From sequence record ON185580.1: a DNA stretch of 44,544 nucleotides, one strand, 5' to 3'. Below are positions 52 to 30,817 of this stretch, in pieces. The position numbers and the translations under genes were made by a program. This stretch comes from Escherichia phage EC120. Every line of letters starts with the position of its first letter. Position 1 is the first letter of the stretch. The notes beneath the pieces were generated by a model. That model was not told where the DNA came from, ran no database searches, and saw nothing but the letters and a program-made list of their open reading frames with translations.

Positions 52-397
52 CCTTAGGCTATTCCTTTATGGATAGCTTAGGTTATAGCTTAGTGGCCTA
101 CCTTAGTTATAACCTTAGTGCATAGCTTAGTATCAGCTTAGTAGTGTACCTTAGTAAGTCTTAGTGTCTTCTCTTAGTGATTGCACATGCAAGCATGTAA
201 GATGCCATTAGGTCGCGGTCGGTAGACCGCTACAGAAGGAGAATAGTAATAAGATGCAGTAGGAGGAACACCAGAAACCTAGCCAACCTAGCCTATCCTA
301 GCTCTGTATCTATTGCTTTTCCTTAGTCTAACATGTGAGACAACCTATCTTATTCTTAGTGATGGTAACTTAGTGTTGACAAGATAATCTTAGTGTA
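52..397. repeat. Left-end array of short CTTAGT(G)/CTTAGG direct repeats (at least 13 copies)
   Basis: Motif CTTAG(T/G) recurs every 10-35 bp between about 52 and 397; the same motif recurs near the right end (44003-44485). Analogous to short repeat arrays next to T7 genome ends. Confidence 0.6.
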
Positions 398-1698: not shown

Positions 1699-1812
1699 AT
1701 GGAAAAGCTATACAACTTCATCTTTTCAGACGGTGTAACCCTGAAGTGTTCCCTACGATTCGCTCAGATTCGTGAGGAAGTGCTAGGTACTACATACAAA
1801 CTATTTAGCTGA
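1699..1812 (+). CDS. Small hypothetical early protein (37 aa)
   Basis: ATG 2 nt after ocr stop with GAGGA RBS; same position as T7 gene 0.4. Confidence 0.3.
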   Translation: MEKLYNFIFSDGVTLKCSLRFAQIREEVLGTTYKLFS

Positions 1813-1825
1813 CACTATAAGAGAA
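1803..1825 (+). promoter_or_regulatory. Variant phage-RNAP promoter-like sequence (ATTTAGCTGACACTATAAGAG)
   Basis: Matches the SP6-type promoter except A instead of G at the expected +1; may be weak or non-functional. Confidence 0.35.
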
Positions 1826-1888
1826 GTCTTAACAAGGCGTTGCTACGGTAGCGCCTGATTAAACTTTCACTTACTAGAGGTTAAAATT

Positions 1889-2014
1889 ATGAAACTATCG
1901 CCATCCGCTAAAGGCCTCATTGCAGAACTTAAAGACTCTTTGAGGAATCCAATCATTTGGGCACTTATCTACATACCTTATGGTATCTACCTATTTCACC
2001 TCATCACTGAGTAA
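1889..2014 (+). CDS. Small hydrophobic early protein (41 aa)
   Basis: GAGG RBS; predicted TM segment IIWALIYIPYGIYLFHLI. Confidence 0.3.
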   Translation: MKLSPSAKGLIAELKDSLRNPIIWALIYIPYGIYLFHLITE

Positions 2015-2048
2015 ATAGCCTATAGCCTACCTATGTGGGCTATGTGAT

Positions 2049-2071
2049 ATTTACTTACACTATAAGGTGAT
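2049..2071 (+). promoter_or_regulatory. Divergent phage promoter-like sequence (ATTTACTTACACTATAAGGTG)
   Basis: Shares the ATTTAC and CACTATA blocks but has altered spacing and TATAAG; low confidence. Confidence 0.25.
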
Positions 2072-2075
2072 TAAT

Positions 2076-2999
2076 ATGACTACTGAAAACATCCTTCTGT
2101 CTGTTCGTGAAGCTGCAACCGCTGAAATCAAGCAGCACTTAGACAATATCGGCACTTCTTACATCAAAGTTGGCGCTTGTCTGAATGAATTACGCGGTGA
2201 TTTCGAAGGTCAAAAAGACTTTTTAGCTTATGTAGAATCAGAGTTCGGCATCAAGAAAGCACAATGCTACAAGCTGATGAGTGTAGCCCGTGTCTTTGAA
2301 GGAGACGAACGCTTTAAAGGTGTGGCTATGCGTGTAATGCTGGCGCTTGTTCCTTTCGCTGATGAAAATATGATCATGGAGAAGGCCGCAGAACTCGCCG
2401 CAGAGGGCAAGCTGGACACTAACGCCGTAAACGCCCTGATTGATCCTAAGAAAGAGACAAAGGCCGAGACGGTACAACCTAAGGTTGAGTCGGTAAAACC
2501 GCAGGAGAACGCGACTGAGGCCGCAGAAACTATGCAAGGACATGCAACCTTTGAGGATTTCATATTAGAGAAGGCGAAAGAGGAGCTACAAAGTGTGCCG
2601 CCAGCAAGTGAGTCTGGTAACGACGAATCCGCACCGTGGGAAGACAAAAGCAAGCAGGAAGACACAAAGGCAGCGCCACGGGATAACACGGCTAACACCG
2701 AGAGTGCCGCTATTGCTGGCCTTCTGGCACAAATTAAAGCACTGACCGAGCAATTACAGGCAGCTAATGACCGCATTGCCTCCTTAAGCAGCACACGCGA
2801 AAGCAAGAAAGCAGCCGCGCCTATGCTGCCGCAATTCAAATCTTCCTGCTTCTATGCTCGCTTAGGTTTAAGCGCTGAGGAGGCAACGAAGAAGACAGCA
2901 GTTAACAAGGCACGCCGCGAACTGGTTAAGCTAGGCTACGGCGAAGGCCATGAAGCATGGCCCTTAATCTCTGAGGCAGTAGAAGAATTAACTAAGTAA
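2076..2999 (+). CDS. Early protein of unknown function (307 aa) directly upstream of RNAP
   Basis: AAGGTGA RBS 5 nt before ATG 2076 (track start 2067 is GTG). Globular N-terminal region, low-complexity K/E/T/A-rich linker, conserved-looking C-terminal 60 aa. Occupies the T7 gene 0.7 position but has no recognisable kinase motifs. Confidence 0.7.
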   Translation: MTTENILLSVREAATAEIKQHLDNIGTSYIKVGACLNELRGDFEGQKDFLAYVESEFGIKKAQCYKLMSVARVFEGDERFKGVAMRVMLALVPFADENMIMEKAAELAAEGKLDTNAVNALIDPKKETKAETVQPKVESVKPQENATEAAETMQGHATFEDFILEKAKEELQSVPPASESGNDESAPWEDKSKQEDTKAAPRDNTANTESAAIAGLLAQIKALTEQLQAANDRIASLSSTRESKKAAAPMLPQFKSSCFYARLGLSAEEATKKTAVNKARRELVKLGYGEGHEAWPLISEAVEELTK

Positions 3000-3062
3000 C
3001 CTTATCGGTGGCATCTTCTTAGGTGTCACCTATTAAGGTTTCTTTCACTAGGAGTAAACAAG

Positions 3063-5690
3063 ATGCAAGACCTACACGCTATTCAACTTCAACTTGAAGA
3101 AGAAATGTTTAACGGCGGTATCCGTCGCTTTGAAGCGGACCAACAACGCCAGATTGCATCCGGTAATGAATCAGACACGGCATGGAATCGCCGCTTATTG
3201 TCCGAGTTAATCGCGCCAATGGCTGAAGGTATTCAGGCATACAAGGAAGAGTATGAAGGTAAAAGAGGCCGTGCACCGCGTGCATTAGCTTTCATTAACT
3301 GCGTAGAAAACGAAGTGGCAGCATATATCACGATGAAAATCGTTATGGATATGCTGAACACGGATGTAACTTTGCAGGCTATAGCCATGAATGTAGCTGA
3401 CCGCATTGAGGACCAAGTACGTTTTAGCAAGCTGGAAGGTCACGCCGCCAAATACTTTGAGAAAGTTAAGAAGTCACTTAAGGCAAGTAAGACTAAATCA
3501 TATCGCCATGCGCACAACGTAGCGGTCGTGGCTGAGAAGTCAGTAGCTGACCGTGACGCTGATTTCTCTCGCTGGGAGGCGTGGCCTAAAGATACCTTGC
3601 TACAAATTGGTATGACCTTGCTAGAAATACTGGAAAATAGTGTATTCTTCAATGGTCAGCCTGTCTTTCTTCGCACCTTGCGCACTAATGGTGGCAAGCA
3701 TGGCGTTTACTACTTACAGACTAGCGAACACGTGGGTGAATGGATAACTGCATTTAAAGAGCACGTAGCTCAGCTGAGTCCAGCCTATGCGCCTTGCGTT
3801 ATTCCTCCTCGTCCGTGGGTTTCTCCGTTTAATGGTGGCTTCCATACTGAGAAAGTAGCAAGCCGTATTCGTCTAGTAAAAGGCAATCGTGAGCACGTCC
3901 GCAAGCTGACCAAAAAGCAAATGCCAGCGGTTTACAAGGCTGTTAACGCTTTGCAGGCGACTAAGTGGCAGGTTAATAAAGAGGTTTTGCAGGTAGTAGA
4001 GGACGTTATCCGTCTCGACCTTGGTTATGGTGTGCCTTCCTTTAAACCACTCATCGACCGTGAGAACAAGCCAGCTAATCCAGTGCCGTTAGAGTTCCAG
4101 CACCTGCGAGGCCGTGAATTGAAAGAGATGCTAACACCGGAGCAATGGCAGGCCTTCATCAACTGGAAGGGTGAATGTACTAAGCTGTATACCGCTGAGA
4201 CTAAGCGCGGCAGCAAGTCGGCGGCGACCGTCCGCATGGTAGGACAGGCCCGTAAATACAGCCAGTTTGACGCTATTTATTTTGTATATGCACTGGATAG
4301 CCGTTCACGCGTTTATGCGCAATCTAGCACGCTCTCGCCGCAATCAAACGACTTAGGCAAGGCATTGCTCCGTTTTACCGAAGGGCAGCGTCTTGATAGC
4401 GCTGAGGCGCTTAAGTGGTTTTTGGTGAACGGGGCGAATAACTGGGGTTGGGATAAGAAAACTTTTGACGTGCGCACCTCTAACGTGCTGGATGGCGAAT
4501 TTCAAGACATGTGCCGCGACATTGCAGCCGATCCGCTGACCTTCACTCAATGGGTAAATGCTGATTCCCCTTACGGCTTCCTTGCATGGTGCTTTGAATA
4601 TGCGCGTTATCTGGATGCACTGGATGAAGGCACGCAAGACCAATTCATGACGCACCTACCCGTCCATCAAGACGGTAGTTGCTCTGGTATCCAGCACTAT
4701 AGCGCGATGTTACGCGATGAAGTAGGTGCGAAAGCAGTAAACCTTAAGCCTTCTGACTTCCCTCAAGATATTTATGGCGCGGTTGCGCAGGTTGTTATCC
4801 AGAAGAATTACGCCTACATGAATGCAGACGATGCAGAGACTTTCACATCTGGAAGCGTCACACTTACAGGTGCAGAACTGCGTAGCATGGCTAGTGCGTG
4901 GGATATGATAGGAATCACTCGCGGATTGACCAAAAAGCCCGTAATGACACTACCTTATGGCAGCACACGTCTAACCTGCCGTGAATCAGTGATTGATTAT
5001 ATCGTTGATTTGGAAGAAAAAGAGGCCCAACGAGCTATTGCGGAAGGGCGTACCGCCAATCCTGTACATCCTTTTGATAATGACCGTAAGGACAGCCTGA
5101 CACCTAGTGCAGCTTATAACTATATGACGGCTTTAATCTGGCCTTCTATTTCGGAAGTGGTTAAAGCTCCTATAGTGGCAATGAAAATGATTCGTCAGCT
5201 TGCCCGTTTCGCAGCTAAAAGGAATGAAGGCTTAGAGTATACCTTGCCTACTGGCTTCATCTTGCAACAAAAGATTATGGCTACTGATATGCTCCGCGTA
5301 TCCACTTGCCTGATGGGAGAAATCAAGATGAGTCTACAGATTGAAACGGACGTAGTGGATGAAACGGCTATGATGGGCGCTGCTGCTCCTAACTTTGTGC
5401 ATGGTCATGATGCCAGTCACCTTATCTTAACAGTCTGCGACCTTGTTGATAAAGGGATTACATCTATCGCAGTCATTCATGATTCTTTCGGTACTCACGC
5501 AGGCCGTACAGCCGATCTTCGTGATAGCTTAAGGGCAGAAATGGTGAAGATGTATCAAGGCCGTAATGCCCTGCAAAGCCTGTTAGATGAGCATGAAGAA
5601 CGCTGGTTAGTAGACACCGGAATCCAAGTGCCAGAGCAAGGAGAGTTTGACCTTAACGAAATCTTAGTATCTGACTATTGCTTCGCATAA
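3063..5690 (+). CDS. Single-subunit DNA-dependent RNA polymerase (SP6-type)
   Basis: 875 aa; N-terminus [32 protein letters not shown] and C-terminus ...[10 protein letters not shown]...FA align by recall with SP6 RNAP; catalytic [14 protein letters not shown] and VIHDSFGTH motifs present. Confidence 0.97.
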
Positions 5691-5698
5691 TATTAATA

Positions 5699-5729
5699 GG
5701 CCATTCCTTCGGGAGTGGCCTTTTCTTTT
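5699..5729 (+). terminator. Intrinsic terminator after RNAP gene
   Basis: 9-bp stem GGCCATTCC/GGAGTGGCC with TTCG tetraloop, followed by TTTTCTTTT. Confidence 0.6.
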
Positions 5730-5763: not shown

Positions 5764-5779
5764 GTCTCACATGTGAGAC
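5764..5779. repeat. Palindrome GTCTCACATGTGAGAC (copy 1)
   Basis: Perfect 16-bp palindrome, 2 nt upstream of phage promoter 5782. Confidence 0.8.
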
Positions 5780-5781
5780 TT

Positions 5782-5804
5782 ATTTACCGGACACTATAGG
5801 ATAG
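5782..5804 (+). promoter_or_regulatory. Phage-RNAP promoter (ATTTACCGGACACTATAGGATAG)
   Basis: 18-bp SP6-type core; expected +1 G at 5799. Confidence 0.7.
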
Positions 5805-5947
5805 CCGTCGGAGACGGGGAAAGAAAGGGAAGATAAAGGATATAAAAAGGAAGTGATAGGTATTAAAGGCTATATAGGTTATCTAGGAATACCTATTACC
5901 TTCTTCCTTCCTCTTATTACTACTTAGAGGAAGGGCAGATCTAGGTT

Positions 5948-5963
5948 GTCTCACATGTGAGAC
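5948..5963. repeat. Palindrome GTCTCACATGTGAGAC (copy 2)
   Basis: Perfect 16-bp palindrome, 5 nt upstream of promoter 5969. Confidence 0.8.
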
Positions 5964-6148: not shown

Positions 6149-8137
6149 ATGGCTATTATTCAGAATGTACCGTGTCCTGCCTGTCAAAAGAATGGACATG
6201 ATATTACTGGCAACCATCTTATGATATTTGAGGATGGCGCTGGTTACTGTAACCGTGGTCACTTCCATGATAATGGGAAGCCTTATTACCATAAGCCAGA
6301 GGGTGGTATCGAGATAACCGAATTGCCTATTACTGGCAATATCAAATATACACCTTCTCAATTCAAAGAAATGGAGAAGGAAGGGAAGATAAGCGACCCT
6401 AAGCTACGCGCCATCGCTCTTGGTGGTATGCGTATGAAAGACCGTTGGGAGGTCATGAATGAGCAAGAAAGGGCAGACCAAGAAGCAGAGTGGAAACTTG
6501 ATGTTGAATGGTTCCTCACGCTTAAGCGTAAGAACCTTGTTTCCAGACACATTCGCGGCGACATTTGCGCATTGTATGATGTACGTGTCGGACACGATGA
6601 AGAGGGTAGAGTCTCGCGGCATTACTATCCACGCTTCGAGAAAGGTGAGCTAGTAGGAGCTAAGTGTCGCACATTACCTAAAGATTTTAAGTTTGGTCAT
6701 TTAGGTAAACTCTTTGGTATGCAAGATCTTTTCGGTATGAATACTTTGTCTCACGTGTTAGACAAGGGGAGACGAAAGGATTGCTTGCTTATTGTAGGCG
6801 GTGAACTTGATGCACTAGCAGCGCAGCAGATGCTCCTTGATTCTGCCAAAGGTACTAAGTGGGAAGGACAACCATATCATGTGTGGTCTGTCAACAAGGG
6901 CGAGTCTTGCCTTGAAGAGATAGTGCAGAACCGTGAGCATATCGCCCAATTCAAGAAGATTATATGGGGTTTTGATGGAGATGAGGTAGGGCAGAAGCAG
7001 AATCAGCAAGCGGCTCGCCTGTTTCCTGGCAAATCCTATATCCTTGAATACCCCTCTGGTTGCAAAGATGCTAACAAGGCATTGATGGCTGGCAAGGCCA
7101 AAGAGTTTGTTGATGCATGGTTTAATGCCAAGTCATCTGATGAAGTCTTTGGTAGCCAGATTAAATCTATCGCATCTCAAAGGGATAAGCTCAAGGCTGC
7201 ACGTCCAGAGCAAGGACTATCATGGCCTTGGCCTAAGCTGAACAAGGTAACGCTAGGTATTCGTAAGAACCAACTTATCATTGTAGGCGCAGGCTCTGGT
7301 GTAGGTAAGACTGAGTTCCTTCGTGAAGTAGTTAAGCACCTCATTGAAGAACACGGTGAATCTGTAGGCATCATTTCTACAGAAGACCCGATGGTCAAGG
7401 TGTCCCGTGCTTTTATCGGCAAGTGGATTGATAAGCGTATTGAGTTACCGCCAACCAACGACCCGAAAGAAGATGGATACCGTGAGGTGTTCGACTACAC
7501 CGAGGAAGAAGCCAATGCTGCCATTGATTATGTAGCGGATACAGGGAAGCTGTTTGTGGCTGACCTAGAGGGTGACTATTCGATGGAGAAGGTAGAGCAG
7601 ACTTGCCTTGAGTTTGAGGCTATGGGTATTTCTAATATCATCATTGATAACTTAACGGGGATTAAATTAGATGAGCGTGCTTTTGGTGGGAAGGTTGGTG
7701 CACTTGATGAATGCGTCAAGCGGATTGGTACTATCAAAGACCGACACCCGGTTACTATATTCCTTGTATCGCACCTTACACGTCCTCCGGCAAACCGTAC
7801 CCAACACGAAGAAGGTGGCGAGGTTATCCTTTCTGACTTCCGAGGCTCAGGAGCTATCGGATTCTGGGCATCTTACGCCTTGGGGATTGAGCGTAACACA
7901 AGAGCTGAAACGCTTGATGAAAGAACTACCACGTACATCTCATGTGTCAAAGACCGCGACCAAGGTATCTGGACTGGAACCAAGGTCATGCTTAAGGGTG
8001 ACATTCAAACCGGACGTTTAATGGAACCACAAGCCCGTACTAAGTCATTTGATACAGGTGAAGCAAGGCAACAAGAAGTACCAGATTTACCGGACACTAT
8101 AGAAGAGACTAACTTCGATGAAGAAAGTGAGTTCTGA
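6149..8137 (+). CDS. DNA primase/helicase (T7 gp4-like)
   Basis: N-terminal Cys4 zinc-binding motif (CPACQ...C..GHFHD), Walker A GAGSGVGKTEF, acidic C-terminus ending EESEF. Confidence 0.93.
   Translation: MAIIQNVPCPACQKNGHDITGNHLMIFEDGAGYCNRGHFHDNGKPYYHKPEGGIEITELPITGNIKYTPSQFKEMEKEGKISDPKLRAIALGGMRMKDRWEVMNEQERADQEAEWKLDVEWFLTLKRKNLVSRHIRGDICALYDVRVGHDEEGRVSRHYYPRFEKGELVGAKCRTLPKDFKFGHLGKLFGMQDLFGMNTLSHVLDKGRRKDCLLIVGGELDALAAQQMLLDSAKGTKWEGQPYHVWSVNKGESCLEEIVQNREHIAQFKKIIWGFDGDEVGQKQNQQAARLFPGKSYILEYPSGCKDANKALMAGKAKEFVDAWFNAKSSDEVFGSQIKSIASQRDKLKAARPEQGLSWPWPKLNKVTLGIRKNQLIIVGAGSGVGKTEFLREVVKHLIEEHGESVGIISTEDPMVKVSRAFIGKWIDKRIELPPTNDPKEDGYREVFDYTEEEANAAIDYVADTGKLFVADLEGDYSMEKVEQTCLEFEAMGISNIIIDNLTGIKLDERAFGGKVGALDECVKRIGTIKDRHPVTIFLVSHLTRPPANRTQHEEGGEVILSDFRGSGAIGFWASYALGIERNTRAETLDERTTTYISCVKDRDQGIWTGTKVMLKGDIQTGRLMEPQARTKSFDTGEARQQEVPDLPDTIEETNFDEESEF
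8085..8107 (+). promoter_or_regulatory. Phage-RNAP promoter embedded in 3' end of primase-helicase gene
   Basis: ATTTACCGGACACTATAGAAGAG; expected +1 G at 8102. Confidence 0.6.
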
Positions 8138-8157: not shown

Positions 8158-8175
8158 TGTCTCACATGTGAGACA
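8158..8175. repeat. Palindrome TGTCTCACATGTGAGACA (copy 3)
   Basis: Perfect 18-bp palindrome (extendable with wobble pairs to 8153-8180) right after the primase-helicase stop, followed by CTCTTATT. Confidence 0.8.
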
Positions 8176-8213: not shown

Positions 8214-8897
8214 ATGTATAAATTAGTATTGAATGTAGGTGATTATGTTCGTAACATCAATGAAGCCTCACGTCGTTATCGTTGCCGTGGTGTAGTGGCT
8301 CGTGTAAGTGAGAACATGTATCATGTAGAATATGAGGATGGTATTAAGGCTTCTTACCACAAGAAAACAGCACATAAATACCTTGAAAAGATTGTAGAGA
8401 TAAACAATCAATGTAAGTGCATACATGATGAGGTTTGCGATAAATGTGCTCGCCAGATGCTTAAGAATTTCCTAGCTCCTCTTTATTATGGTTCTGGCCC
8501 TCAAACACTAGCAGAGTACATGGCAGAAAAGAAAACCACACTCAAGAAAGAGCGCCGCAATGTAATCACTGGTAAGACTCAAAGTGAAATGATTAAACTA
8601 TGTGGCACTGCATTAGGTGTTACGCAGTTTAATACTCGTTCATTGGGTAAATCCACAGGGCAAGCTATGGTGAAGATTGGTGAAGCCATGATGCAACCAA
8701 ATGTACCTGTGCGAATCGTGGATATTGACCATGCAATCACAGAGCATGGTACACCACGCCGTGTAGCTAACAATCATTTTGCCGACACTATAGAAGACAT
8801 TATTCGTAAGCAAGGGTTGAAGGGTCTTCACATCTTAAATGGTGAAGAATTACTGTACCTACCTATCGTTACTGAAGAAACCTACGTGAATATCTAA
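8214..8897 (+). CDS. Hypothetical protein (227 aa)
   Basis: GGAG RBS then ATG 8214 (track start 8208 is TTG); no recognised motifs. Confidence 0.65.
   Translation: MYKLVLNVGDYVRNINEASRRYRCRGVVARVSENMYHVEYEDGIKASYHKKTAHKYLEKIVEINNQCKCIHDEVCDKCARQMLKNFLAPLYYGSGPQTLAEYMAEKKTTLKKERRNVITGKTQSEMIKLCGTALGVTQFNTRSLGKSTGQAMVKIGEAMMQPNVPVRIVDIDHAITEHGTPRRVANNHFADTIEDIIRKQGLKGLHILNGEELLYLPIVTEETYVNI
8776..8798 (+). promoter_or_regulatory. Weak or divergent phage promoter-like sequence (ATTTTGCCGACACTATAGAAGAC)
   Basis: Conserved GACACTATAGAAG with 4 mismatches in the upstream half; lies inside a CDS. Confidence 0.4.
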
Positions 8898-9302: not shown

Positions 9303-9318
9303 GTCTCACACGTGAGAC
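9303..9318. repeat. Palindrome variant GTCTCACACGTGAGAC (copy 4)
   Basis: 7-bp arms identical to the other copies with a 2-nt central mismatch; extendable to 9299-9322; followed by CTTTCATC. Confidence 0.75.
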
Positions 9319-14140: not shown

Positions 14141-14156
14141 GTCTCACATGTGAGAC
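14141..14156. repeat. Palindrome GTCTCACATGTGAGAC (copy 5)
   Basis: Perfect 16-bp palindrome starting 2 nt after the stop of ORF 13921-14139; 15 nt upstream of promoter 14172. Confidence 0.8.
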
Positions 14157-17409: not shown

Positions 17410-17913
17410 ATGTCACACTATGAATGTAAGAAGTGTCATAAGCGTTATGATTACTGTACTTGTGGTCAAGAGAAAACATCTTTTAAAGTTGGAGACAAGG
17501 TATTTCGTAATGAAAAAGATTCTATTCCTTGGAATCAATTCTGCAAAGAAGCTGGTATTGACCCTGATAGCCCTGTAACCATAGATGATATTGATGGCAT
17601 TAACTTGTGCTTTCGTGAGGTGAGGGGTATAGGTTGGGATTCCAAAAAATTCAAACTTGCATCTGATAAGTTAGACAACAATATGGTAACTCAGCCTAAG
17701 CACTACGAGTTCTTTGATGGTGTAGAGGCAATCACTATCATTGCCCGCAGTATGACTGAAAAGCAATTCGCGGGGTACTGCATGGGTAATGCCCTTAAGT
17801 ATCGCCTGCGTGCAGGTAAGAAGTTCAATACTGAAGAAGACTTGAAGAAGGCAGATTATTATAAAGAGTTATTCCAGAAGCATCGTCACGAATGTATTGA
17901 TGAGGATATTTAA
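17410..17913 (+). CDS. Hypothetical protein with N-terminal Cys cluster (167 aa)
   Basis: GGAGGA RBS then ATG 17410; N-terminus CKKCHKRYDYCTCG; C-terminal GNALKYRLRAGKK motif of unknown function. Confidence 0.65.
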   Translation: MSHYECKKCHKRYDYCTCGQEKTSFKVGDKVFRNEKDSIPWNQFCKEAGIDPDSPVTIDDIDGINLCFREVRGIGWDSKKFKLASDKLDNNMVTQPKHYEFFDGVEAITIIARSMTEKQFAGYCMGNALKYRLRAGKKFNTEEDLKKADYYKELFQKHRHECIDEDI

Positions 17914-30799: not shown

Positions 30800-30817
30800 T
30801 GTCTCACATGTGAGACA
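30800..30817. repeat. Palindrome TGTCTCACATGTGAGACA (copy 6)
   Basis: Perfect 18-bp palindrome between two internal virion protein genes, followed by GGTCTTTATG. Confidence 0.8.

Follow-up and report, generated by a model that had tools for sequence, protein, structure and literature searches.

The window analysed here is the 44,544-nucleotide (nt) sequence of Escherichia phage EC120 (ON185580.1), an SP6-type coliphage similar to K1-5 and K1E (genus Vectrevirus, Molineuxvirinae), and represents its complete or near-complete genome; the gene under study, located on the + strand directly upstream of the phage RNA polymerase gene, encodes a protein of 307 amino acids. This protein is probably a KorB-like, site-specific DNA-binding regulator or organiser of the genome of its own phage, and the paired reader of the 16-base-pair (bp) palindrome GTCTCACATGTGAGAC that recurs in that genome. 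The proposal starts from results obtained directly by computation, namely the domain homologies of the protein, the repeat and its enrichment, the restriction of this repeat to gene-carrying genomes, and the covariation between residues of the protein and the half-site of the repeat. The claim as a whole is based on comparative sequence analysis and on structure prediction of moderate confidence, and its new aspect would be that a phage group in which this was unexpected possesses a site-specific helix-turn-helix regulator whose operators are dispersed and whose chain also includes a degenerate J-domain. A literature search covering the gene, DUF3102, phage J-proteins, SP6 early functions and the palindrome, with the original SP6 and K1-5/SP6 genome papers outside its coverage, returned no functional study and no earlier description of the domain architecture, the repeat or their connection.

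Copies of the palindrome in the EC120 genome

The palindrome, which a terminator scan had listed twice, is present in the window in eight copies at two mismatches or fewer, five of which are perfect, compared to an expected number of 0.17, and seven of the eight copies are intergenic. No strand is assigned to the copies, which are located as follows:

326..341: copy 1, GTCTAACATGTGAGAC, one mismatch; at the left end of the genome, 34 bp upstream of the -35 element of the first sigma70-like promoter (376-404)
5764..5779: copy 2, perfect; ends 2 bp before phage promoter 5782, the first promoter after the RNA polymerase gene
5948..5963: copy 3, perfect; 5 bp before phage promoter 5969
6748..6763: copy 4, GTCTCACGTGTTAGAC, two mismatches; inside the primase/helicase open reading frame (ORF), syntenic with SP6 7071
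8159..8174: copy 5, perfect; 22 nt past the primase stop codon, in a 13-bp stem with a U-rich tail (minimum free energy -20.3 kcal/mol)
9303..9318: copy 6, one mismatch, palindromic except at its centre; in an intergenic region, where the stem is extended and a U-rich tail follows
14141..14156: copy 7, perfect; separated by 2 nt from the preceding stop codon and by 15 bp from the phage promoter at 14172, which follows
30801..30816: copy 8, perfect; syntenic with SP6 30569 and PM116 31971, in an intergenic region, where the stem is extended and a U-rich tail follows

The features of an intrinsic terminator, i.e., a stable G+C-rich stem followed by a U run, were found for three of the eight copies (8159, 9303 and 30801), which lie 11-22 nt past stop codons in 12-13-bp stems (-18 to -20 kcal/mol) with U-rich tails; copy 5, for example, is regarded as terminator-like because of its 13-bp stem and the tail that follows it. 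The other copies possess 6-7-bp stems without a clear U run, or are located upstream of all promoters.

A small conserved hairpin-like leader was also observed at 5799-5825, just past the first promoter after the polymerase gene; it reads CCGTCGGAGACGGGG in the window and 'cccgtcgg' in SP6 (at approximately 6125) and PM116 (at approximately 6480), and a purine/AT-rich stretch extends from it to the second promoter. It could function as a leader, in processing or as part of an origin.

The repeat in related phages

A repeated inverted repeat with 7-nt arms, belonging to one family, is found in the whole genomes of all of seven relatives and in 44 IMG/VR loci. Such a repeat is present in each of the 53 relatives examined and absent from T7 and phiKMV. 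The following types, given by arm sequence and spacer length, were distinguished:

GTCTCAC, spacer 2: Vectrevirus and Erwinia phages
GTCTCAC, spacer 3: Vibrio VEN-like and Pseudomonas Nerthus-like phages
GTCCAAC / GTCTAAC, spacer 2-3: SP6 relatives; Klebsiella, Proteus, Lelliottia and Pectobacterium phages
GTTTCAC, spacer 2-3: loci L049 and L051
GTCTACA, spacer 2-3: loci L054, L058 and L060
GTCTAGT, spacer 2: ECBP5-like phages
GTAACAC, spacer 2: locus L055
GTTCGAG, spacer 2: Marinomonas phage CPP1m

With one mismatch per arm allowed, the type expected for the clade was recovered in all 46 of the 46 tabulated family loci and genomes. The top inverted repeat has three to eight perfect-arm copies in six of the seven relatives' whole genomes, compared to one or two in shuffled sequences; SP6, whose arms are unequal (GTCTAAC and GTCCAAC), has two perfect-arm copies and nine at one mismatch per arm. 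The same count in phages that do not possess the gene yielded two for T7 and one for phiKMV. Viral contigs were also scanned for GTCTCACNNNGTGAGAC and, among the matches listed, all stretches with at least three sites come from gene-encoding contigs, the 104 stretches that have a single site and no gene derive from no known carrier, and two single-site stretches hold the gene.

The primase-gene copy is located at the same place in EC120 and SP6, while VEN and Nerthus both possess a copy inside the RNA polymerase gene at 1551 nt from its start codon. The retention of copies inside coding regions thus points to selection acting on the DNA within these ORFs. The positions noted for coding-region copies outside the window are 4636 in VEN, 5159 in Nerthus and 5800 in phiEa100. 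Phages of the ECBP5 type (ECBP5 itself, at approximately 6060 and 14595, and locus L061) furthermore carry a second inverted repeat, GTACTAG-TTRG-CTAGTAC, which is situated a few bases past copies of the first, GTCTAGT-NN-ACTAGAC.

Domain architecture of the protein

The structure was modelled using AlphaFold2 with a 32-sequence alignment, while a single-sequence AlphaFold run gave a predicted local distance difference test (pLDDT) value of 46.6. An original prediction, made by a model from the sequence alone, had described a tripartite organisation consisting of a globular N-domain, a low-complexity linker and a short C-domain; this description holds and is refined by the AlphaFold2 model to an N-domain, a disordered acidic stretch, a coiled-coil helix and a C-domain, with the following features:

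2103..2441, + strand: N-terminal domain, residues 10-122; helical (pLDDT 75-88), with a predicted DUF3102-type, ParB/KorB-like DNA-binding fold
2211..2297, + strand: predicted helix-turn-helix, residues 46-74, with AlphaFold2 helices 46-57 and 61-74
within 2211..2297, + strand: predicted recognition helix, residues 61-74, KAQCYKLMSVARVF; proposed specificity residues Q63, Y65 and K66 (K66 codon at 2271-2273)
2442..2690, + strand: acidic, mostly disordered linker, residues 123-205; pLDDT <50, net charge -9 (about residues 126-205)
2691..2807, + strand: coiled coil, residues 206-244; one long AlphaFold2 helix with hydrophobic residues at 3-4 spacing, the presumed dimerisation element
2808..2996, + strand: C-terminal domain, residues 245-307; a J-domain homologue preceded by the invariant P-x-L-P-Q-F
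2937-2945, + strand: Y288-G289-E290, replacing the HPD motif inside the invariant G-Y-G-x-G-H

Invariant residues are concentrated in the N-domain, at L223 of the coiled coil, in P249-x-L-P-Q-F254 and in G287-Y-G-x-x-H292.

The N-domain is assigned, on the basis of profile and fold comparisons, to the ParB/KorB-type DNA-binding fold of the DUF3102 family, with a predicted helix-turn-helix. The DUF3102 model (PF11300) is matched by 11/32, 12/32 and 26/31 family members, with a best expectation value (E) of 1.4e-14, and viral structural neighbours in BFVD are named DUF3102. The membership is transitive, since these homologues match the model while the window protein itself gives no match to it even at E values up to 10. 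A Foldseek comparison with the PDB, in which all matches were weak, agrees weakly with this assignment, and a search of PDB sequences with the N-domain profile detected no solved structure. No described function was found for DUF3102; membership therefore names a fold rather than a mechanism. The source of one relative (P0194) lists it as 'uncharacterized protein family UPF0137', and Pfam UPF0137 is matched by one distant relative (E 1.4e-4); a connection between DUF3102-like domains and UPF0137 is hinted at.

The linker contains an acidic-aromatic motif, ESAPWED (residues 184-190, nt 2625-2645), whose counterparts in Vibrio phages read DDIPFD or DVPFD. Such a motif is present in 19 of 106 representatives at 50% identity, compared to two after shuffling, and is confined to some clades. 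The DDIPFD/DVPFD form is reminiscent of the DDDIPF tip of bacterial SSB.

Covariation of the predicted recognition helix with the half-site

The class of half-site carried by a phage maps one-to-one onto the predicted recognition helix (residues 61-74) of its protein. For example, GTCTCAC coincides with Q63/Y65/K66 in four clades whose mutual identity is only 35-44%; GTCCAAC/GTCTAAC coincides with the replacement of K66 by N or H in clades that are 47-69% identical to the window protein; GTTTCAC coincides with Y65 to S; and GTCTACA, GTCTAGT and GTAACAC coincide with Q63 to Y, W or H, together with K66 to R. An unbiased scan of all 307 alignment positions was performed on 21 sequences of the GTCTCAC type (class A) and 15 of the GTCCAAC/GTCTAAC type (class B). 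Among the 46 columns that are invariant in class A, K66 is the only one that is changed in all 15 class-B sequences. Shared ancestry alone is an unlikely cause of this pattern, because the covariation is discordant with overall relatedness and because the discriminating columns fall in the helix with which such a fold reads bases.

Other possible readers of the palindrome were also considered. A host factor was rejected, since E. coli phages with different variants of the protein (K1-type as opposed to ECBP5) carry different palindromes, in line with their protein class. The phage RNA polymerase is unlikely to be the reader, because promoter type and palindrome type are uncoupled: Vectrevirus and SP6 have promoter types in common but differ in their palindromes, whereas the Colwellvirinae possess other promoters and the same palindrome. 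Among the 34 other small ORFs of the window no other conserved DNA-binding candidate was found, the family matches being limited to two HNH endonucleases, one weak HTH_23 and the small terminase. The two HNH endonucleases are of the HNH_3 homing type, and these matches and that to HTH_23 belong to ORFs among 8214-8897, 17410-17913 and others.

Duplex DNA or RNA hairpin

The palindrome would be read by the protein as duplex DNA, a view that is based on four observations. The sequence of the arms, and not just their pairing, is identical in Escherichia, Erwinia, Vibrio and Pseudomonas phages whose proteins are 35-44% identical; in imperfect copies the variant half-site GTCTAAC recurs in one arm or the other, so that C.U, A.G or C.A mismatches arise when these copies are read as RNA; the left-end copy at 326 precedes all early promoters; and the promoter-proximal copies at 5764, 5948 and 14141 form only 6-7-bp stems. 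Some copies may nonetheless double as RNA hairpins.

Several points weigh against the proposed function. The N-domain is acidic (net charge -5), the covariation rests on about six independent changes in clades that share ancestry, and no binding experiment on either the protein or the palindrome was found in the literature searched. The distance between palindrome and promoter varies from 1 to 17 bp, which argues against a fixed activator geometry. Furthermore, the half-sites are spaced by 2 or 3 bp, both between clades and within some genomes, which is easier to reconcile with a hairpin than with a rigid dimer, although the flexible linker of approximately 80 residues between the DNA-binding domain and the coiled coil could account for this tolerance. 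Finally, the copies at 8159, 9303 and 30801 resemble ordinary intrinsic terminators, and for one such hairpin copy, in Proteus phage PM116, the annotation gives a Rho-independent terminator.

The terminator-like copies and the variable spacing, which is trivial for a loop, would suit an alternative in which the palindromes act in RNA as terminators, processing sites or hairpins that stabilise 3' ends, with the protein either acting in termination or antitermination by binding the RNA of the hairpin, or being unrelated to it, the covariation then reflecting ancestry. This alternative, which we regard as quite improbable, is also favoured by the position of copies just after stop codons and by the fact that, in most asymmetric SP6 copies, the unequal arms form a U.G pair on the transcribed strand, which is tolerated. 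An orientation bias of the SP6 asymmetry was itself considered as proof of an RNA function and was rejected, being statistically not significant and contradicted by the copies of Klebsiella phages. Arms that are identical across distant phages are, however, unlike ordinary terminators; at least eight copies give C.A when read as + strand RNA and others give C.U or A.G; and the left-end copy, upstream of all early promoters, and the short stems of the copies at 5764, 5948 and 14141 weigh against it as well. The palindrome was likewise rejected as a known RNA family, as Rfam 15 returned zero matches at gathering score in the window. The single-column result for K66 is hard to obtain from ancestry alone, and helix-turn-helix domains of the ParB/KorB fold bind double-stranded DNA.

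The C-terminal J-like domain

The compact C-domain (residues 250-307) is modelled with a pLDDT above 90 and is, as judged from profile comparisons, a J-domain by descent and fold that fails the defining HPD feature. Three distant relatives pass the Pfam DnaJ model (PF00226; E down to 3e-11), which is matched at E <1 by 24 of 43 C-terminal segments. A profile built from intermediates only, with neither HPD nor GYG, retrieved 37 solved J-domains and nothing else (best E 8.2e-7), and the GYG subfamily to which the window protein belongs matches this intermediates profile with 99.8% probability (E 1.8e-28). The intermediate subfamily is needed for this homology, because the GYG-subfamily profile alone returned no significant match to J-domains in the PDB. 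Across distant representatives the loop between the two main helices is graded, ranging from GYGxGH through (I/L)(Y/F)T... and HY(N/T)P(D/E) to a true HPD, the latter being seen only in rare metagenomic relatives. The contigs of the HPD-bearing and intermediate metagenomic relatives are all shorter than 2 kb, and a tblastn search with these relatives against isolated phages returned only the SP6-type family.

In an alignment to E. coli DnaJ, HPD corresponds to Y288-G289-E290. The domain shares with J-domain proteins the hairpin formed by helix II, loop and helix III, and its basic helix II is kept (KKTAVNKARRELVK); it differs from them by Y-G-E in place of HPD and by the invariant PxLPQF extension before helix I. 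The protein is thus not a functional J-protein in the strict sense and, with HPD lost, canonical activation of DnaK is unlikely, while the invariant GYGxGH that stands in its place suggests a new interface. Tim16/Pam16 is an HPD-less J-like protein, and is comparable to the window protein in this respect. CbpA and polyomavirus large T antigen unite a J-domain with DNA binding; the likeness would be one of functional analogy only, as their DNA-binding folds and domain order are different and both retain a functional HPD.

Proposed mode of action and comparison with known systems

From the above we infer physical binding, dimerisation and all downstream effects, which may be pictured as follows. 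Two chains would pair via the coiled coil (residues 206-244), so that each DUF3102 helix-turn-helix could read one GTCTCAC half-site, with Q63, Y65 and K66 setting specificity. The J-like domain, lacking the HPD loop needed to fire DnaK, would together with the PxLPQF motif constitute a docking or effector module for a partner. The eight copies would act as borders of transcription units, being situated before promoters of the phage polymerase, in terminator-like hairpins that follow genes, and, at the left end of the genome, ahead of the early promoters. Made early alongside the polymerase, the protein may by its occupancy of these borders modulate promoter use or read-through, and possibly origin use, genome-wide, with KorB of plasmid RK2 serving as a working model.

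RK2 KorB has about a dozen dispersed palindromic operators, some of which are promoter-proximal and some distant. Like KorB, the window protein is acidic and is associated with multiple dispersed palindromes on its own replicon (eight in EC120), the palindrome being a putative operator. Unlike KorB, it possesses no N-terminal ParB/Srx cytidine triphosphate (CTP)-binding domain according to Pfam and NCBIfam, its DNA-binding domain starting at about residue 10; no KorA- or ParA-type partner gene is present among the window ORFs scanned; a predicted coiled coil would provide dimerisation instead of an SH3-like C-domain; a J-like domain is present; and the promoters concerned belong to a single-subunit phage RNA polymerase. 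The absence of the CTP-binding N-domain and of a partner gene means that the protein is not a strict member of the ParB/KorB group. The 16-bp palindromic site is shared with the ParB/Spo0J/Noc-parS systems, and the GTTTCAC half-site (class C) is identical to the half-site of the parS sequence, TGTTNCACGTGAAACA, from which GTCTCAC is one base off. In contrast to parS, the phage half-sites are 2-3 bp further apart and, in contrast to ParB/Spo0J/Noc, the phage protein possesses neither a CTPase domain nor a ParA partner, and nothing in the data points to spreading or sliding.

Every clade has palindrome copies directly next to its own phage promoter, always including the first promoter or promoters after the polymerase gene and often one at the left end. 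In T7 the matching positions, those of phi1.1A/B and phiOL, are the primary and a secondary replication origin. The modules of palindrome and promoter after the polymerase gene and at the left end might represent origins that are marked by the same binding, the protein recruiting the replisome or a remodelling factor through its linker motif and J-like domain, in a loose parallel with the J-domain and origin-binding domain of polyomavirus large T antigen. A purine/AT-rich stretch (5805-5945) between the two promoters after the polymerase gene would fit such a role, as would the ancestral relatives with a true J-domain, J-proteins and DnaK being known to activate several phage and plasmid initiators, and the resemblance of DDIPFD/ESAPWED to the acidic, aromatic-ended tails with which proteins dock on the replisome. 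However, five of the eight copies are not beside such a promoter and three are terminator-like, the linker motif is limited to certain clades, the material available contains no mapped origin for these phages, and the loss of HPD speaks against canonical DnaK activation, so that a role confined to replication appears unlikely.

A more far-reaching formulation of the regulator proposal combines both aspects: SP6-type phages, unlike T7, would possess a genome-wide DNA-bound organiser, in which a ParB/KorB-fold reader of parS-like palindromes is fused to a repurposed J-domain (GYGxGH in place of HPD). Positioned at the ends of units and on the upstream side of promoters of the single-subunit polymerase, it would gate promoter use or read-through and license promoter-linked origins via a partner (phage polymerase, primase-helicase or DnaK) recruited by the J-like domain. 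This formulation is tentative and, on the present evidence, rather doubtful.

The usual account of gene control in the T7 supergroup invokes polymerases, the strength of promoters, terminators and proteins that bind the polymerase, but no site-specific DNA-binding regulators. If the protein reads 8-10 operators per genome, an additional layer of control would exist in SP6/K1-5-type phages. Should the organiser reading be true, no regulator of transcription or replication that binds DNA sequence-specifically would have been described in the T7 supergroup before this one, and the J-domain fold would have been put to a new use. SP6/K1-5-type phages, from which SP6 RNA polymerase derives, find wide therapeutic use, the targets being K1 E. 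coli, Klebsiella, Salmonella, Vibrio and plant pathogens; if true, the control layer would have to be respected in genome refactoring or recoding, and would be usable as an orthogonal operator/repressor set with at least seven natural specificity classes. The protein would furthermore provide a first function-level handle on Pfam DUF3102 and an example of a J-domain whose fold is kept while its catalytic loop is replaced.

Family distribution and annotation

A tblastn search found the protein at full length in 213 phage records, in which it is annotated almost everywhere as hypothetical. Carriers belong to the Molineuxvirinae (Escherichia, Salmonella, Klebsiella, Proteus, Erwinia, Pectobacterium and Lelliottia phages), the Colwellvirinae (Vibrio, Pseudomonas, Marinomonas, Aeromonas and Shewanella phages) and Gajwadongvirus. 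In all of the seven records inspected, i.e., that of VEc3 and those of six phages less closely related, the polymerase gene follows either directly or after a single small ORF. A profile search of 1.84 billion cluster representatives returned 540 relatives at E <=1e-3, 95 of these at E <=1e-30. The window protein alone, when compared with Pfam, NCBIfam, PADLOC and PDB sequences, gave only coiled-coil noise.

A few homologues are labelled 'endolysin/andolysin' or 'late transcription factor' (KY295891, PP179315/PP179317, vB_EcolP_P433.1 and ON624112), and the phiA318 homologue has been equated with the gene 0.7 kinase ('similar to gene 0.7') by position only (PMC4099482). The comparisons made here support none of these labels: no kinase family was detected for the window protein, and BLASTP against T7 gp0.7 gave E = 17, so that the two proteins have their map position, but no sequence similarity, in common. 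A kinase analogue of the gp0.7 type was accordingly rejected, and the entries 'kinase', 'endolysin' and 'late transcription factor' in the literature and GenBank would need correction.

Early-region setting of the gene

Bases 1800-3100 of the window are 99.5% identical to Escherichia phage VEc3, whose early region comprises, in order, the ocr gene, two tiny ORFs, vec3_07 ('hypothetical protein') and the RNA polymerase gene. The gene and its immediate surroundings in EC120 are as follows:

2076..2999, + strand: the gene under study, 307 codons plus stop; equivalents are VEc3 vec3_07 and SP6 'gene 6' of AY370673
2064..2070, + strand: ribosome-binding site AAGGTGA, read from the sequence, 5 nt before ATG 2076
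1803..1825, + strand: SP6-type phage-promoter-like sequence ATTTAGCTGACACTATAAGAGAA, a good match, upstream of the 41-amino-acid ORF and of the gene
2048..2070, + strand: degenerate phage-promoter-like sequence directly before the gene, with an intact core ACACTATA and its upstream half displaced by 1 nt

The ORF spans 2067-2999 on the + strand, and ATG 2076 was taken as its start because of the upstream ribosome-binding site and a match to the MTTE start of homologues. Directly downstream is the RNA polymerase gene (3063-5690, 875 amino acids). The SP6-type promoter pattern has four matches in the window, compared to 0.02 expected; both promoter-like sequences upstream of the gene are without the consensus G at +1.

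The descriptive part of the original prediction is borne out by these data. The protein is indeed uncharacterised (PHROG 4571 is of 'unknown function' and nearly all records read 'hypothetical protein'), and its gene has the same place on the map, relative to the RNA polymerase gene (gene 1), as T7 gene 0.7. It is, as had been stated, the largest early gene beside that of the polymerase, the other ORFs upstream of the latter encoding 73, 74, 122 and 41 amino acids, and it has promoter-like sequences of its own upstream, one good (1803-1825) and one degenerate (2048-2070). The asserted lack of protein kinase motifs agrees with the kinase comparisons given above, and homology to a housekeeping enzyme, which would have counted against the prediction, did not emerge.

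The expectation that the protein targets host transcription or defence, on the other hand, found no support, as the DUF3102 ParB/KorB-type N-domain and the covariation of its recognition helix with the genomic palindrome point to the phage's own DNA. A host takeover function, with the helix-turn-helix bound to DNA or a protein of the host, and with DnaK or some other host factor sequestered or misdirected by the J-like domain, would agree with early expression beside ocr and the polymerase and with J-domain ancestry and the retained basic helix II; a precedent is RB43 Rki, reportedly a phage J-protein acting on DnaK. Nevertheless, HPD is lost and the invariant GYGxGH suggests a different interface, the specificity residues track the repeat of the phage genome rather than the host species, and searches of anti-defence and defence models (PADLOC) yielded no family match, only one coiled-coil-type match at E 0.087. 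Such a function is therefore considered very unlikely as the principal one, while a host-directed side activity via the J-like domain, e.g., on DnaK, is possible.

Among the neighbouring elements, the 122-amino-acid ORF (1328-1696, + strand) strongly matches Pfam PF08684, the family of the DNA mimic ocr (E 9.7e-42), and its VEc3 counterpart is labelled 'ocr protein'. A terminator-like hairpin (TATAGCC...GGCTATG with a T-rich tail) is located at 2021-2044 on the + strand, just before the degenerate promoter and the gene, and a strong terminator-like hairpin, AGGCCATTCC TTCG GGAGTGGCCT followed by a T run, is present at 5698-5721 on the + strand, right after the polymerase gene.

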